This document shows, piece after piece, positions 22,709 through 34,736 of a DNA stretch of 64,000 nucleotides. The notes beneath the pieces are model-generated. The model was not told where the DNA came from. It searched no databases and worked only from the letters and a program-made list of their open reading frames with translations. Position numbers and translations under genes: made by a program. Source of the DNA: Candidatus Micrarchaeota archaeon (GTDB taxonomy: Archaea > Micrarchaeota > Micrarchaeia > Anstonellales > Bilamarchaeaceae); the NCBI GenBank assembly GCA_043821365.1, contig JBDRCX010000006.1:288001-352000 (forward strand), written 5' to 3'. Each line of letters begins with the position of its first letter. Positions within the stretch are counted from its first letter, which is position 1.

Positions 22709-22806
22709 CGGGCCCGACGGGATTTGAACCCGTATCCCGAGGTATCTCCTACAATTAGGAGGGGCATTCGAAGCCTCGTCGGTTATCCAGGTTGCCAAAC
22801 GGGCCC
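22709..22806 (-). tRNA. tRNA-Arg(TCG) with 24-nt canonical 37/38 intron
   Basis: GGGCCCG/CGGGCCC acceptor, CGAGG-CTTCGA|A-CCTCG anticodon arm, A20, T-arm ACGGG-TTCAAAT-CCCGT; intron 22744-22767 forms a BHB (CTTC/GGAG). Confidence 0.9.
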
Positions 22807-23532
22807 TTTTTCTATCTTTATTTCTTTCCGTAGTATTGATAATCGTTCTGCATAAGTTGTATTTGGTGGGCAATGACCATATCTCATCCAAATGTCATAT
22901 CTACTAGATTTCACATGATTATTCATACCTATCATGTTCATCCATTTAATTGCTCTACCCCCAGTTATCCAAATTCTATATGCATTTGACCATTTTGAAT
23001 TTTGAGGGTATACAATATCGCTACAATGTCTAATCTCTAGACTATTAAGAATATCTTTTGTTTCATCAAAAAGAGATTTGGACGTAGTGGTCAAATTTAT
23101 CACTGGATAATAATGGCATGTTCTTTTGAATTCACGGTATTTTCCAGTACTTCGTTTGAACGAAAGTGATCCATCGGTATCAACTAAACCCCTTAAAAAA
23201 GCACATTTGATTTGCAAGCTTTGGGTCTTCATTATAAATTTGGGAATTGAAACAATGTAGCTTTTTCTACCATAAGGAAATCCTAGTGAATGCATTTTTT
23301 CTATTATTTTCTTCTCTCTAATAACGAATCCATATGTGCTTCGTTTAGGAAAAATTCTTCCATTGATTACAGTTCGAAAAACTTTACTAAATAGCGGAAT
23401 TACTATATTTCTATAGTAAATCTCTTCTTCTAATGAACCACTCACATCCAGCTCCCTATTATGGTTCTTATTTCTCAAATGGCCATCTCCAGCATGGATT
23501 CCACATATCTCTGCAAGTTCTATATCCCCCAT
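22783..23532 (-). CDS. LAGLIDADG homing endonuclease 1 (overlaps the tRNA-Arg 5' end)
   Basis: LAEICGIHAGDGH and FLRGLVDTDGS motifs; the stop codon lies in the tRNA D-loop. Confidence 0.9.
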   Translation of the reverse strand: MGDIELAEICGIHAGDGHLRNKNHNRELDVSGSLEEEIYYRNIVIPLFSKVFRTVINGRIFPKRSTYGFVIREKKIIEKMHSLGFPYGRKSYIVSIPKFIMKTQSLQIKCAFLRGLVDTDGSLSFKRSTGKYREFKRTCHYYPVINLTTTSKSLFDETKDILNSLEIRHCSDIVYPQNSKWSNAYRIWITGGRAIKWMNMIGMNNHVKSSRYDIWMRYGHCPPNTTYAERLSILRKEIKIEKGPVWQPG

Positions 23533-29673: not shown

Positions 29674-30252
29674 ATGCACAGACAAGTTGGTTTGGTACAA
29701 TCAGGTGGAAACAGCGGAAATAAATTCCGTCAATTCACTTTACGTGCTGAAGGCATCCAAGTTCTTCCTCAAAATACAGTAGAAAATATGGTGCATACAC
29801 TTCATCGTCGTTCCGCTCATTCAATTCTGTCAAGATATTCTGCTGCAAAAAAAACATTACAAGAACAATTTGGTGGTGTTGTTGAACTGGTGCAGGTTCA
29901 TAATGGTGCAATAAGAATAGCTGCTAGACTTGAATTCCTTACTGACCATTTACGGCTTGATGAAAAATTACATTCACTTGTTGTTGGTATGGGTTTTGAT
30001 TTGGTACTTCATCATAGGGTTAGACCAACAGAAGAGCATGTATATATCATAAGTGAAAGTAGGTACAAATCAACCGCTGACTTTTCAGCAGTTGCACATA
30101 TTACTGAAAATCTTCTTCGTCTTGCAAAGATGTTGGAACAATATACTGTTGAATTGCCAGATAATGTAGTGAGACTTCCTATTGGTGAAACAACTCCAAC
30201 TTCTGTTCGAAGTTGCACATTCGAGAACCGGAGGGTGGCACTAGGCACATGA
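29674..30252 (+). CDS. Hypothetical protein
   Basis: 192-aa ORF; no family recognised. Confidence 0.55.
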   Translation: MHRQVGLVQSGGNSGNKFRQFTLRAEGIQVLPQNTVENMVHTLHRRSAHSILSRYSAAKKTLQEQFGGVVELVQVHNGAIRIAARLEFLTDHLRLDEKLHSLVVGMGFDLVLHHRVRPTEEHVYIISESRYKSTADFSAVAHITENLLRLAKMLEQYTVELPDNVVRLPIGETTPTSVRSCTFENRRVALGT

Positions 30253-30280
30253 TTATTAATTTTATCTAAGTGCACATATA

Positions 30281-30832
30281 ATGCGTTTGCCAAGTTTTAT
30301 TATCTATGCTCTATTTGCACTTATATTTGTTCTAATGCTCTTTATGGCATTTAATATTTTTGATCATACTTTATTACTTATTCTTATCACAATCGATATC
30401 CTATTATTTTTCTGTCTTCTCTATCTGTTCATCACTCAAAGATTATCAAAAGAAATAGATTTTACAAAATATCCAATTGAGGTTCCAGTGCTTGGCATGC
30501 ATGAAAGAGCAAAAATTCTTCCAGATTTTATCCTACAAGAGGATGTTAGTGGAGTTGCTCCGAAAATGGTTTTCTTTCAAGATCATTTTGAGTTCAATCC
30601 AAGTGCCATTGGTATCAGACCAAGAAATAAGCGTTATTCTGAAGTTGAATTGGTAGATGTTACTCATTTTTTGTTTATGGATACAGTTAAATTTACCTTC
30701 AAAGGCAATCTCGCTCTTTCTATTCAACTATTACACAAGAAAAATCTTATCCTGCTTCTTAAATTTCTTAACAAAAAAGGATGCATATTTTCTCCAAAGA
30801 CAAAAAAACTGCTAAAACAAAATCCTTCCTAA
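30281..30832 (+). CDS. Hypothetical membrane protein (2 TM plus soluble domain)
   Basis: Two N-terminal hydrophobic helices. Confidence 0.6.
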   Translation: MRLPSFIIYALFALIFVLMLFMAFNIFDHTLLLILITIDILLFFCLLYLFITQRLSKEIDFTKYPIEVPVLGMHERAKILPDFILQEDVSGVAPKMVFFQDHFEFNPSAIGIRPRNKRYSEVELVDVTHFLFMDTVKFTFKGNLALSIQLLHKKNLILLLKFLNKKGCIFSPKTKKLLKQNPS

Positions 30833-30861
30833 TTTTAATTTCTTACTCTCTTTATCCTATC

Positions 30862-30924
30862 ATGTTCAAACAAACAATTGTTGTTCGTGCTGATCTAAAG
30901 ATGAACCGCGGAAATGACGTCTAA
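30862..30924 (+). pseudogene. Orphaned 5' fragment of pth2 (MFKQTIVVRADLKMNRG-NDV*)
   Basis: 12 of 17 residues identical to the N-terminus of the intact Pth2 at 31894; similarity ends at the endonuclease ATG. Confidence 0.85.
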
Positions 30925-31909
30925 TCCTGTTTATAAACGACCAAAAATCTATTTTTTTATGAAACGATATTGGGATAAGAAATATTTGAAAAAACAATTA
31001 CGTGCTGGCAAGACTTATCTAACCATTGCTAAAGAAAATAATATCTCTAGTACTACTGTTCAAAGAGCATTAAATACATATGAGCTAACGAAACCAAGGT
31101 ACGATTGGAATCAGAAAGAACTCGCTCTTCTAAAACGATACTACTGCCGCACATCCTATCCAAATCTGATTCTACCTCATAGGACTTTAAGTTCTATCTA
31201 CCATAAAGCTACTCGTCTTGGTCTGAAAAGTTCTAATCATTTTAGGAAATATAAAATTAACACAAATTTTTTCAAAAAATGGACAAAATCGATGGCATAT
31301 CTGCTTGGATGGATGTTTAGTGATGGGAATATGGCGGATGATTGCCGTTCATTCAGATTAAAATTGGCGATTAAAGATCAAGGAATTTTATATGTCCTTA
31401 AGCGTGCCATGAACGCAAATGTTCCGATACGTGTTCATTCACAATTAGTTCCCTCTAAAAAATATTATGCTCAGTATGCTAATCTAAGAGTTACTAATAT
31501 CGAAATGTATAATGATCTCGTTCGCCTTGGGTGCACTCAAAACAAAGTGCACAAATTTATTCCACCCAACATTCCGCCAGTTTTTGTTAGTCATTTCATC
31601 CGTGGATATTTCGACGGAGATGGGTCTATCTATTTTAATAAACCTAATACTATCAGAATTAGATTCGTTGGTTCCAATCGTACTTTCATTCTTTGGCTGG
31701 CTACTTATTTTAATAAAAAATTGTGCTGTCCATTTAACTTCAAAAAAACTCCAATTGCAAAAAAATTATGGCAATGCGAGTATTATGGCGATAATGCACG
31801 TAATCTATGCAAGTGGATGTACCGTGGTTGTGAGAATCTTTATCTTAAACGAAAACGAAAACGCTTTATTGACCATCTGAAAAAGAGAATGTTATGTTCA
31901 AGCAGATAA
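30914..31909 (+). CDS. LAGLIDADG homing endonuclease 2 with N-terminal HTH-like region
   Basis: MAYLLGWMFSDGN and FIRGYFDGDGS motifs. Confidence 0.9.
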   Translation: MTSNPVYKRPKIYFFMKRYWDKKYLKKQLRAGKTYLTIAKENNISSTTVQRALNTYELTKPRYDWNQKELALLKRYYCRTSYPNLILPHRTLSSIYHKATRLGLKSSNHFRKYKINTNFFKKWTKSMAYLLGWMFSDGNMADDCRSFRLKLAIKDQGILYVLKRAMNANVPIRVHSQLVPSKKYYAQYANLRVTNIEMYNDLVRLGCTQNKVHKFIPPNIPPVFVSHFIRGYFDGDGSIYFNKPNTIRIRFVGSNRTFILWLATYFNKKLCCPFNFKKTPIAKKLWQCEYYGDNARNLCKWMYRGCENLYLKRKRKRFIDHLKKRMLCSSR

Positions 31910-32244
31910 TCGTTATGCGGAAAGATCTCAAAATGTCTGTGGGTAAGCTTTTAGCACAATCTTCTCATGCGTCACTTTCAGCTTACAAAAAAGTCTCAAA
32001 ATCAAATCCAGAAATTGCAAAAAGTTGGGAGGCCGAAGGTCAGAAAAAAGTTGTTTTGAAAGTAAACAGCGAAAAAGATTTATTCGAATTTTTTCAAAAA
32101 GGAAAAGATGCAGGAATACCCTGCGAAATCATTAGGGATGCAGGACACACTCAACTAGAACCTGGAACATATACTTGTTTTGGCGCTGGCCCATGGGACG
32201 AAAAACTCTTAGATGAGATTTTCGGAAAATTGAAATTACTTTGA
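31894..32244 (+). CDS. pth2: Peptidyl-tRNA hydrolase 2
   Basis: KQIIVMRKDLKMSVGK..AQ..HA, GQKKVVLK, RDAGHTQLEPGT.T. Confidence 0.95.
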   Translation: MFKQIIVMRKDLKMSVGKLLAQSSHASLSAYKKVSKSNPEIAKSWEAEGQKKVVLKVNSEKDLFEFFQKGKDAGIPCEIIRDAGHTQLEPGTYTCFGAGPWDEKLLDEIFGKLKLL

Positions 32245-32780
32245 TTTTTATGCAAGTTTTTCTATTTCATTGTTGGGGTGGAGATGGCAAAAGTTGCTGG
32301 TCATTTTGGTTAACCAATCGTCTTAAAGAAAAAAATATCTCGGTTCTATCCCCTGATTTTCCGGATACAAATTTTCCTAAATTAGAAAAATGGCTAGAAA
32401 CTATCCGTTCAAATCAAGGAAAATTTGATAAAAAAGAGGATTGGGTTTTTATTGGTCATTCACTTGGTTGTCCCACCATCTTAAGATTGCTTGAATCATT
32501 TGAGAAAGATGAACATGTGAAAAAAGTAATTTTAGTTGCAGGATTTGCAAAAGATCTTGGAATTCCAGATATAAAGAATTTCGTCGATCAAAAATTCAAC
32601 TGGGAAAAAATCAACTCGGTTTGTGATGAATTTGTTGTAATAAATTCTGATGATGATCCTTTTATTGAATTGAACGAAGGAGAAAGGTTGGCAAAAATGC
32701 TTAATACAAAACTGATTGTTGAGCACAATGGTGGTCACATAAATAATCTACACTATGCTCGTTTGTTAGAATTTCTCTAA
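32241..32780 (+). CDS. RBBP9/YdeN alpha/beta hydrolase
   Basis: W..WL, GHSLG nucleophile elbow, SDDDPFI, GGHIN. Confidence 0.88.
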   Translation: MIFMQVFLFHCWGGDGKSCWSFWLTNRLKEKNISVLSPDFPDTNFPKLEKWLETIRSNQGKFDKKEDWVFIGHSLGCPTILRLLESFEKDEHVKKVILVAGFAKDLGIPDIKNFVDQKFNWEKINSVCDEFVVINSDDDPFIELNEGERLAKMLNTKLIVEHNGGHINNLHYARLLEFL

Positions 32781-33262
32781 CCTCCAGTCCAACAACTCGC
32801 CGGTGTTATCATTTTTTCTTTATCTTCTTTACTATATTCTTTATCCATAATCCTATATCCAGTATATTTTTCTTCTACTGGATCCATATCAGGTCCAGGG
32901 GGAGGAAGATAAAAACTTTCTTCTATCTCATTGACAATATAGTCTTTTTCAATTTCTAAACACCATTCTTTTACTATTATTTTTTCCGGCATATCATCTC
33001 CAAAAACATTATTGAAAATCCGCTTGAATTTTTCCGGTGCTGTTTTAGGGTCAAATTCCTTTTCAAAAGTTGTTCCAAGATATAATCTCGCTGGGGGCAC
33101 ACCAATTTCTTTATTTTTTCCATTTATTTCTACAAAAAACCTTTCACTAGTAACGTAAGCTCCAGTATATGTTCCTACATCAATAAATAATGCAGTTTCA
33201 AAGTACACACATCTTTTCCCACTAAATGGAGCTTCCATTTCTTTACCAGTGAATTTGACCAT
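32777..33262 (-). CDS. Hypothetical acidic protein
   Basis: 161-aa ORF (APFSGKRCVYF); no family recognised. Confidence 0.6.
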   Translation of the reverse strand: MVKFTGKEMEAPFSGKRCVYFETALFIDVGTYTGAYVTSERFFVEINGKNKEIGVPPARLYLGTTFEKEFDPKTAPEKFKRIFNNVFGDDMPEKIIVKEWCLEIEKDYIVNEIEESFYLPPPGPDMDPVEEKYTGYRIMDKEYSKEDKEKMITPASCWTGG

Positions 33263-33369
33263 AAAGAATTAGTTGAGTTATAAAATAAAAACGTGCTTGA
33301 AACTGCGGTTTCAAGATAGGCAATTTTGATAAATAGGGGTGCGGGGATGTGCCCCGCAACAAAAAGAAA

Positions 33370-33590
33370 TGCCACGGGCCTGATTTGAACAAGCGACCCC
33401 ACCGTTTCCAAACTTTTTGAAAACATCATTGTTGCAAAACAACAATGCGCCCATAAAAACGATAGTTCGTTTTTATAGGGAAGTTTGACCGAACTGGGAT
33501 TCCAGTTAAGATACTTCAGCTTCACAGATTCTTTTAGTTAAAAAATTCCTAAAAGAAACAGGTGTGCTCTCCCAACTGAGCTACCGTGGC
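33370..33590 (-). tRNA. tRNA-Phe(GAA) with two introns (30/31: 33521-33560; 37/38: 33405-33513)
   Basis: Exons GCCACGG...GAGCACACC / GCTGAAG / ACGGTG...CCGTGGCA rebuild CACCG-CTGAAGA-CGGTG; BHB at both introns (CACA/TGTG; CTGA/TTGG). Confidence 0.88.
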
Positions 33591-33607
33591 ATTTAGTATT
33601 TTAGTTG

Positions 33608-34243
33608 TTAACGGAAAGATTCTAAAATAGTATTTATTCTCCTCCTTTTATGTGGATTTGAGGATCCTATGTCATTATTCCATTTAGCTAGCATCTTCAT
33701 TCCATATATGGAGATTTTATAACTACCATTTCCTGCATGTCTATAATTTATTCGAAATCCCATCTCAATCAATGTTTTGTATACCTGTATTAACAATGTT
33801 TGATTCGAATTTGTTATCTCCAGTGTGGGGTAGCTCTCGATGCCTTTTTTATGTGATGTAAACACAGACCCATCAGTGTCGAATAAACCCCTAATGAAAG
33901 CTTTTAGTAGTTTTTTAGTGACACTTATTCTTGGCGGGATTCCAAATTTACACTTTAATGTTCTAGGTGGTATCCCTATTTTATTTGTGATAAACTGGTA
34001 AAATTTTTTAGAATATATAGTTAATCGCAATCCCCTACTCCTCACCCTATAATATGGTTTTTTTATTCTGGAATGAACAAAGAAGTAGATATAGTCAAAA
34101 TATTCTCTATCTGTTATGATGTTCCCGGTTAATGTTATCTCGTATTTTCTTCCATTAGACCATATATTCCCGTCTCCCATCACTGCCCCACAAAATTCTG
34201 AAATCATTTCATCAATAAAATAATCTTCCATAGTATTTCTCAT
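33608..34243 (-). CDS. LAGLIDADG homing endonuclease 3 (17 nt upstream of tRNA-Phe)
   Basis: SEFCGAVMGDGN and FIRGLFDTDGS motifs. Confidence 0.9.
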   Translation of the reverse strand: MRNTMEDYFIDEMISEFCGAVMGDGNIWSNGRKYEITLTGNIITDREYFDYIYFFVHSRIKKPYYRVRSRGLRLTIYSKKFYQFITNKIGIPPRTLKCKFGIPPRISVTKKLLKAFIRGLFDTDGSVFTSHKKGIESYPTLEITNSNQTLLIQVYKTLIEMGFRINYRHAGNGSYKISIYGMKMLAKWNNDIGSSNPHKRRRINTILESFR

Positions 34244-34487
34244 TTGCTATTCTTTATCTCTATGATCCTGTTTTTGATGTGCCTGCCCATCAAAAATACT
34301 ATTTTAAATGTTATTTACCATATATTTCCATTACAGACAAGTAAAAAAAGATTTCATTTAGCCTTTGATAGGTTTATGAAGTCTTTCAACCCCAGTAAAT
34401 TTTTTCAGTTTAGCTGTTATTGAGGTTTTCTACCACAAATATTCCAAAGTAGTCAGAGGTAAATAAGGGGATGGTAGGTTCATCCCT

Positions 34488-34736
34488 ATGATATTAAGAG
34501 CAATTGCGAAATTACATTTCATCGTTGGTCTGGGTATGTTCTTATTTGTAGGGCTAATGGTTGTCTCTGACGATGTTGATGCCCGTGCTCTTCTTCTTTT
34601 GCCCATAGTGATAATGTTTATGGCAGCTAAAATCCTTCATACAATTGATCAAGCAAACGAACTAGAGGATATGATGTATCGTTATAAAAAGAGAATTTCA
34701 GACCCACTACCTACCGAAGCGTCTTTTTCTTCTTGA
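34488..34736 (+). CDS. Small 2-TM membrane protein
   Basis: Two hydrophobic helices in an 82-aa ORF. Confidence 0.5.
   Translation: MILRAIAKLHFIVGLGMFLFVGLMVVSDDVDARALLLLPIVIMFMAAKILHTIDQANELEDMMYRYKKRISDPLPTEASFSS

Follow-up and report, generated by a model that had tools for sequence, protein, structure and literature searches.

The pth2 gene of a Candidatus Micrarchaeota archaeon has very probably been entered, within its 5' coding region, by a free-standing cassette made of a two-motif LAGLIDADG homing endonuclease gene and a replacement for the start of the invaded gene. The locus resides in a window of 64,000 nucleotides (nt), the whole stretch of DNA analysed here, which spans positions 288,001 to 352,000 of contig JBDRCX010000006.1 (assembly GCA_043821365.1); coordinates are those of the window, and all components of the locus are on the plus strand. 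The genome measures 1.2 Mb and is 87% complete, and relatives in the host family are named Candidatus Micrarchaeota at NCBI. An earlier note on this DNA had described the order as pth2 stub, endonuclease, intact pth2, and both the sequence and the list of open reading frames (ORFs) confirm it. The stub (30862-30924) carries 17 pth2 codons, begins with an ATG at 30862, ends with a TAA at 30922-30924, and is translated as MFKQTIVVRADLKMNRGNDV followed by the stop. The TATA-like box TTTTAATTT at 30833-30841, presumably the promoter element of native pth2, has its centre about 25 nt 5' of the stub ATG, a distance at which the transcript would be leaderless. Codons 1-14 of the stub (MFKQTIVVRADLKM, 30862-30903) are the native part, pushed aside by the insertion. 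The endonuclease ORF (30914-31909) encodes 331 residues from the first ATG, or 316 residues from Met16 (30959). Its last codons and stop overlap by 16 nt (31894-31909) the start of the resident pth2 (31894-32244), a complete and functional gene of 116 codons. The first 20 or so codons of this gene (MFKQIIVMRKDLKMSVGKLL, 31894-31953, the right-hand boundary being approximate) constitute the imported 5' module. Resident Pth2 matches the Pfam family PF01981 over profile positions 1-115 of 115 (E=4e-42), and is the sole pth2 match in the genome, where the gene is thus single copy.

Stub and resident 5' end are exactly 1032 nt apart, in register and in the same frame. Of their 17 residues 12 are the same, as are 32 of 51 nt (63%); third positions agree in only 6 of the 17 codons, and the longest stretch of identity measures 8 nt. 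A recount agrees with the earlier note that 7 of the 10 identical non-Met residues are specified by different codons. The view expressed there, that these are two diverged alleles and not a fresh duplication, holds when relatives are compared, and the alignment it proposed of both segments to the pth2 genes of relatives tells which is which: the stub is the native, displaced 5' end, and the resident 5' end is an imported, diverged and functional replacement. By blastn, the window and the contig of the nearest endonuclease-free relative (genome G024) are collinear at ~78% identity up to 30903, and the match resumes at 31894; the interval 30904-31893 is therefore a 990-nt insertion relative to G024. 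At 95% identity to the start of pth2 in G024 over its first 42 nt (E=6e-15), the stub is no chance match. The 40-nt block upstream of it, TATA-like box included, is identical in G024, and similar in most relatives of the genus. Because of this collinearity and identity, stub and promoter are recognised as the native 5' end. At the other side, resident Pth2 is 67% identical to the protein of the closest relative (G001) over residues 1-21, and 91% over residues 22-116 (Fisher p=0.009). Residues 1-21 are matched best, at 81%, by the endonuclease-linked allele of genome G027, whose body is only 63% identical. By comparative inference the resident gene is a mosaic, with residues 1-21 of the endonuclease-linked type and a body of the host type, which is the pattern of co-conversion. 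Judged from these alignments, the stub is the host's own displaced 5' end, with its promoter still attached, and the working 5' end came with the endonuclease.

The stub itself is plausibly composite. The left junction, AAC CGC GGA AAT GAC GTC TAA (30904-30924), holds relic Arg-Gly-Lys codons and the stub stop, and includes, at 30907-30915, a motif (CGCGGAAAT) common to the left ends of four Micrarchaeota elements. Upstream of the endonuclease gene, G022, G010 and G027 have either CCGCGGAAAT or GTGCGGAAAT. In G022 the motif sits 3' of a longer native stub, and therefore seems to be an Arg-Gly-Lys codon relic carried along by the element. The stub of the window is probably a hybrid, formed by host codons 1-14 and element-borne codons 15-18. 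The comparison with relatives also supports the placing of the break, in the earlier note, inside the conserved DLxMxxGK region. As a separate observation, the string (C)CGCGGAAAT includes a CCGCGG palindrome, which has been kept although the proteins of the four Micrarchaeota elements (window; L004, L005 and L006) are only 49-59% identical.

The association of the endonuclease with pth2 is a property of the family. About 65 full-length protein clusters were retrieved at E<1e-40, with 38-57% identity, after which E values drop sharply to 1e-24. Downstream sequence is available for 19 endonuclease loci, 18 in genomes and one in an ENA record, and in each of them pth2 follows directly on the same strand, although the other neighbours differ from locus to locus. 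The loci examined bear the names of four DPANN lineages, Micrarchaeota, Diapherotrites/Iainarchaeum, Woesearchaeota and Nanoarchaeota, and one is from a single-cell genome. Of the 16 cases that could be measured, 15 show an overlap of 4-67 nt between the endonuclease stop and the pth2 start. The endonuclease ORF thus physically includes the working pth2 start, and this is direct evidence for the start being a piece of the mobile unit. The distribution is sporadic. Within the host family 6 of 99 genomes have the endonuclease, and within the genus 4 of 40; genome searches detected it in no further family of the order. Occupied and empty sites, the latter represented by 24 endonuclease-free alleles, are found among close relatives. 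In one pair of genomes (G027 and G055) the endonucleases are closer to each other than the Pth2 proteins of their hosts (63% versus 53%). Two loci deserve separate mention. In Candidatus Iainarchaeum isolate SI037_bin87 (L056:1959-3251) the frame of the endonuclease runs on into pth2 without an intervening stop, and a fusion protein is possible. Genome G180, from a Woesearchaeota family, has two pth2 copies on different contigs (L092, L093), one of which has the MEYKQ-type start typical of endonuclease-linked alleles; no endonuclease motif was found in the 680 nt available upstream of this copy.

Displaced stubs reside in at least nine other genomes, in various states of preservation. Native-type stubs, broken at codons 17-21, are found in G022, G044, L046, L047, L050, L053/L038, L058 and L060. 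In the woesearchaeote G176 the stub reads MKQAVLVR...PKGKLVA, the native start in eight endonuclease-free genomes of the same host family, and the resident copy starts with MGYKQ. In other genomes the stub is fused in frame to the endonuclease, either as MLKQVIIVRTDLKMGK followed by the endonuclease (P0020), or as the six-codon remnant MELKQA (G055; L042/L003); the old pth2 start codon would there serve the endonuclease, as far as the reading frames tell. Stub and promoter have been deleted in G010, G027 and L039, and the G027 copy of the endonuclease is interrupted by a TGA. In G044 (L007:1470-1640) a start-less stub is followed immediately by what is left of the endonuclease, its last 46 codons, and then by an intact pth2 with a GTG start and a GAGGGGAG tract. 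This remnant shows that an invaded host can shed the body of the endonuclease, but not its 3' end, because the pth2 start lies there. The element is for the same reason hard to lose: once it has entered, the start of pth2 is inside it, and only internal deletions are tolerated.

The polarity could in principle be the reverse, with stub and endonuclease forming together a mobile unit dropped upstream of an untouched native pth2, or with the stub as a remnant of an old tandem pth2 duplicate. That part of the stub seems to travel, its last four codons sharing CGCGGAAAT with other elements, is in keeping with the former version. Yet the promoter and the first 42 stub nt align collinearly with the nearest relative at 95-100% identity, it is the resident 5' end that diverges, and in 15 of 16 relatives the endonuclease ORF overlaps the resident start. 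As to the tandem duplicate, stub breaks cluster at codons 17-21 across phyla, which random decay would not produce. We regard either version as highly improbable.

The finding of two pth2 starts in the same frame, separated by 1032 nt, is also what an intron would leave, either of group I or of the archaeal bulge-helix-bulge (BHB) type, if the stub were spliced to the body of pth2 and the second 5' end were incidental. LAGLIDADG genes are frequent in archaeal introns, and the best structural match of the endonuclease is the intron-encoded I-Tsp061I. An intron had been named in the earlier note as the finding that would overturn its reading, but the tests made at the locus give it no support. 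No Rfam family was detected at E≤1 within 30000-34600. Pairing of the junctions upon co-folding is no better than in shuffled sequences (z=-0.5), and a loose scan for BHB-like structures returned 6 matches, against ~5 expected by chance. The resident pth2 is complete, has its own start, and is conserved in all relatives. In turn, stubs are interrupted by stops, deleted or start-less in G010, G027, G044, G055 and L039, so the protein cannot depend on the stub. Splicing of this kind is accordingly a very remote explanation. An intein was rejected, the frame of the stub ending in TAA, the endonuclease being in another frame with its own start, and no Hint domain appearing in the Pfam scan. The lack of Rfam matches, the stub stop with the change of frame, and BHB pairings at chance level mark the element as free-standing, and neither intron nor intein.

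A chimeric assembly, the other outcome by which the earlier note would have been refuted, would imply that the pth2 starts of two strains had been joined through a shared sequence. The idea has some ground, since a co-occurring organism of the G024 type shares 46-70 nt at the stub, which creates a branch in the assembly graph at 30858-30903. In contigs from three runs of two studies, however, both junctions are bridged with zero differences. Contigs matching 30858-30942, 30858-30976 and 30818-31250 span the junction between stub and endonuclease; contigs matching 30918-32564, 31080-32524 and 31288-32257 span the junction between endonuclease and pth2. The same architecture was moreover found in at least nine other independent assemblies, a single-cell genome included, and a chimera is the least credible of the alternatives, extremely unlikely in our judgement. 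In runs X1 and X2, contigs of the related endonuclease-free organism, which match the window at 30858-30903 and continue as GGAAAAGGAAAGCTTGCAGCA, come from the same groundwater/biofilm samples. The endonuclease-free allele was therefore met in two of the three runs in the company of the carrier, and possible recipients coexist with it.

The endonuclease of the window looks like an integral, two-motif LAGLIDADG enzyme. The Pfam match to PF14528 (LAGLIDADG_3) is marginal, covers one stretch only (23.0 bits against a cut-off of 22.5), and is accompanied by a weak N-terminal match to HTH_23; homologues carry PF14528 in a precomputed table. Motif 1 (LLGWMFSDGN, 31301-31330) and motif 2 (FIRGYFDGDGS, 31595-31627) both have the invariant Asp. 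Twenty-seven sequences of the family align over their full length; the 33 invariant positions, among which S121, D122 and G123 in motif 1, and G220, D221 and G222 in motif 2, are all kept in the window copy. An AlphaFold model, with a predicted local distance difference test score (pLDDT) of 91.3, is helical in its N-terminal domain (~residues 1-90; helices at residues 7-86), which is followed by two LAGLIDADG domains of alpha/beta type; residues 110-290 show the succession of helices and strands expected for two alpha-beta-beta-alpha-beta-beta-alpha domains, which would form a DNA-binding saddle. The best PDB matches found by Foldseek are I-Tsp061I (E=2e-7), an intein endonuclease domain, I-AniI, I-SceI and I-OnuI. 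Motifs with conserved acidic residues, fold, and a Pfam match above the curated cut-off are thus those of a two-motif LAGLIDADG protein. The N-terminal helical domain (30959-31230), helix-turn-helix-like and conserved across the family, is a probable additional DNA-binding module in the model. There is no sign of inactivity in the sequence of this predicted enzyme. Where its translation begins is less clear. The earlier note had the endonuclease ATG exactly at the point where similarity breaks (GGA A/ATG); an ATG is indeed present at 30914, but it is lineage-specific, and maybe not the real start. Homologues align only from residue 14-18, the public gene call (P0001, 316 residues) starts at Met16 (30959), and relatives read CCGCGGAAATCAAG at the place of the 30914 ATG, with no ATG there. 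The start codon of the endonuclease is therefore uncertain.

Alleles of pth2 fall into two classes in the host family. Codons 14-22 of endonuclease-free genes spell M-G-[KR]-G-K-[LIM]-[AC]-A-Q in 24 of 24 cases. Endonuclease-linked genes spell M-S-x-G-K in 6 of 6, and are also deviant at codons 20-23 and at codon 10. Ser15 is thus present in all six linked alleles, and in none of the 24 free ones; in the resident 5' module the substitutions that mark linked alleles are Lys10, Ser15, Val16 and Leu20. From the two classes we infer that the recognition site is likely a region of ~24-30 bp with, at its middle, the Gly-Lys codons at which the stub is interrupted, and that the substitutions found in linked alleles are likely the basis of resistance to cutting. 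The sequence GKAC had been considered as an immunity signature in Woesearchaeota and Nanoarchaeota, and was rejected as it is native in some endonuclease-free relatives.

A homing cycle can be envisaged on these premises. The mobile unit would consist of the endonuclease gene, the pth2 start codon and ~20 codons of pth2, whose first 16 nt are shared with the end of the endonuclease ORF. The enzyme would cut an endonuclease-free pth2 in the conserved stretch coding for M-G-K-G-K-L-A-A-Q, approximately at codons 14-22. Repair of the break would be templated by an invaded allele, the 5' end of the recipient pairing with the donor stub on the left, and the body of the gene pairing on the right, and both the endonuclease gene and the replacement 5' module would be copied into the recipient. 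The product would be the arrangement seen in the window, with the native promoter and the displaced native stub, then the endonuclease, then a complete pth2, and splicing of either RNA or protein would be unnecessary. The new 5' end differs from the target at Ser15, residue 16, residues 20-21 and most synonymous positions. Such divergence would confer resistance to cutting, and would leave identities too short (longest run 8 nt) for recombination events deleting the element.

Expression of the invaded gene may differ from that of the native one. TATA-like boxes were found 20-38 nt upstream of the start in 24 of 29 native pth2 upstream regions, and Shine-Dalgarno (SD)-like tracts in 4 of 29, which suggests that the native mRNAs are leaderless. 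Among 18 endonuclease-linked resident genes, TATA-like words occur at the same distance in 8, and SD-like tracts in 9, a suggestive reversal of the native trend. An internal promoter as a general feature of resident pth2 was considered, and is unsupported, with TATA-like words in only 8 of 18 cases and the sequence being AT-rich. Judging from the arrangement of signals, the native promoter now probably drives a stub-endonuclease-pth2 transcript, from which pth2 would be translated as a distal cistron through the overlap, and not in leaderless form. The earlier note also saw, in the running of stub translation over the endonuclease start, an opportunity for coupling. Coupling is possible in the window, where the stub stop is 8 nt past the ATG at 30914, but is not conserved, because the stub-to-endonuclease spacing ranges in relatives from in-frame fusion to ~190 nt.

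Several data weigh against the scheme of an invading, homing cassette. The identities of endonucleases and Pth2 proteins correlate overall (r=0.68), and most of the spread may therefore have occurred within lineages. The nearest known homologue of the endonuclease is only 57% identical, and the cassette has a G+C content (GC) of 0.34, compared to 0.365 of the host, and a third-position value (GC3) of 0.29, which is host-like. There is thus no foreign composition, in GC or GC3, that may signal a recent transfer, and instead of having invaded recently the copy may be a long-standing resident, inherited vertically. The last four stub codons (AAC CGC GGA AAT) match native relatives poorly, and the breakpoint varies among genomes, being at codon 14/18 in the window and at ~21 in most others, which a single fixed insertion point does not predict. 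Translation signals of the resident pth2 are weak in the window, and relatives with SD-like tracts are only 9 of 18. Some linked alleles are canonical, with M-G-R-G-K (L052) or L-A-A-Q (L048), and GKAC is native to some endonuclease-free Woesearchaeota; the immunity signature is therefore not universal. Target site and immunity are in fact deduced from the comparison of alleles alone.

Part of these data can be accommodated by assuming that the element is a fixed relic or a domesticated gene, which entered pth2 in an old invasion, is immobile now, and has been retained because the expression of pth2 needs it. Dependence could be ensured by the endonuclease ORF carrying the ribosome-binding region and the start of pth2, or by the helix-turn-helix domain regulating the operon. 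The distance of the nearest homologue, the host-like composition and the correlated identities fit this assumption, as does the conservation in the family of the N-terminal helix-turn-helix-like domain. In G044, furthermore, the remnant keeps exactly the 3' part with the pth2 start, which shows the dependence of hosts on that piece. The ORF of the window is nonetheless intact, with the 33 invariant positions and both catalytic Asp residues kept. Its patchy presence (6 of 99 host-family genomes) fits a cycle of gain and loss better than a host function, and degenerate copies exist, as in G044 and in the TGA-interrupted G027. We consider a fixed relic or domesticated gene unlikely, though less so than an intron or a reversed polarity. 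It should be noted that the assumption concerns the present activity of the element and not its origin, and overlaps with the explanation preferred here, a homing cassette that brought its own pth2 start.

The closest parallel to the pth2 cassette is provided by the mobile endonuclease ORFs (mORFs) of fungal mitochondria, which replace the C-terminus of the invaded gene, as described for atp6, atp9, cox2 and nad3 of Glomus (PMC3630166). The atp6 gene of Allomyces macrogynus is cited as a further case in the same article (its ref. 48). In both systems an ORF encoding a LAGLIDADG (or, in mORFs, a GIY-YIG) endonuclease sits in a protein-coding gene and is neither intron nor intein, a foreign terminal segment becomes functional, and the native terminus, no longer used, is left behind as a remnant, which in mORFs lies downstream. 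The functional copy is in both systems the more distant from relatives, and the two copies have undergone heavy synonymous divergence. Differences are equally marked. The pth2 cassette replaces the 5' and not the 3' end of the gene, so that the endonuclease is between promoter and gene and the start codon is inside the endonuclease ORF. It resides in archaeal chromosomes, here in a 1.2-Mb genome, and not in mitochondria, and involves one coherent endonuclease family and one target gene in several phyla. By analogy, the pth2 cassette works like an mORF, yet is a distinct variant, a terminal-replacement homing cassette that is the 5' mirror image of the fungal one.

Other comparisons are looser. 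LAGLIDADG enzymes of archaeal introns and inteins (the I-Tsp061I and I-DmoI type, and intein domains) resemble the pth2 enzyme in fold, in being monomers with two motifs, in the high conservation of their targets and in the domain of their hosts; DPANN lineages are rich in such elements. In contrast to the pth2 cassette, which is splicing-free, those known need splicing, and are found for the most part within genes for rRNA or tRNA, or as in-frame inteins; the N-terminal helix-turn-helix-like domain is an addition of the pth2 enzyme. SegF and SegG of phage T4 are free-standing endonucleases that cut the endonuclease-free allele of a neighbouring gene, and spread with co-conversion of flanking markers. 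Such phage enzymes are GIY-YIG, HNH or similar, and are encoded between genes; the target ORF is uninterrupted, and no gene end is duplicated. The pth2 cassette is akin to them in being free-standing and in co-conversion, but its LAGLIDADG gene is inserted within an ORF, which it rebuilds. The term intronless homing is in use for free-standing homing endonucleases (PMC3984707, PMC6083498). Group I introns have been described in the rRNA of DPANN archaea (PMC6125680). A full-text search of the literature, of incomplete coverage, retrieved no account of pth2 harbouring an endonuclease, nor of archaeal genes with a replaced 5' end.

The cassette shows that a homing endonuclease has, in addition to introns and inteins, a third means of residing in an essential chromosomal gene: the start of the gene is rebuilt, and nothing has to be spliced out. 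It also defines a new LAGLIDADG family that spans phyla, with a predicted, highly conserved target in the pth2 stretch coding for Gly-Lys-Gly-Lys-Leu-Ala-Ala-Gln. The enzyme is a candidate for biochemistry and, with its added helix-turn-helix domain, a possible new meganuclease scaffold. Annotation is affected too, as stubs are likely missed or miscalled, the start of the endonuclease is ambiguous, and in at least one genome endonuclease and Pth2 form one ORF. For the study of gene flow among DPANN archaea, the displaced stub records the native allele of the host, whereas the working gene start is foreign. Whether all this is the sign of a general, undescribed, splicing-free mode of colonisation of essential archaeal genes, in which the element would bring, within its own ORF, both a 5' end resistant to cleavage and signals for expression, and in which the stub, more than debris, would serve as promoter and start module for the endonuclease (to which it is fused in P0020 and G055) and as left homology arm between distant hosts, is a matter of speculation, and we propose it tentatively, inclining rather to doubt. 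Were it true, further 5'-replacement cassettes, perhaps numerous, may be present at other conserved genes of DPANN archaea, and the two LAGLIDADG genes next to tRNA genes elsewhere in the window are possible cases.

The first of these two ORFs, 33608-34243 on the minus strand, encodes 211 residues and matches PF14528 (E=3e-10). The surrounding stretch, 33423-34299, has no counterpart at the syntenic position of either G024 or G001. No stub was found upstream of this gene. Just downstream, at 33370-33592 on the same strand, tRNA-like 5' and 3' halves are found ~150 nt apart; neither ARAGORN nor Rfam called a tRNA there. The other ORF, 22783-23532, also on the minus strand, encodes 249 residues, and shares 24 nt with the 5' end of a tRNA that contains an intron (22709-22806; tRNA-Ser cga according to ARAGORN). 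A tRNA 5' stub upstream of this gene is unsupported, 278 of 300 shuffled sequences having aligned as well. The surroundings of pth2 are rich in indels. Relative to the window at 32244-33270, G024 (L040, G024:C8) has ~900 nt extra between pth2 and a serine-hydrolase gene, and ~1.4 kb extra after the latter.

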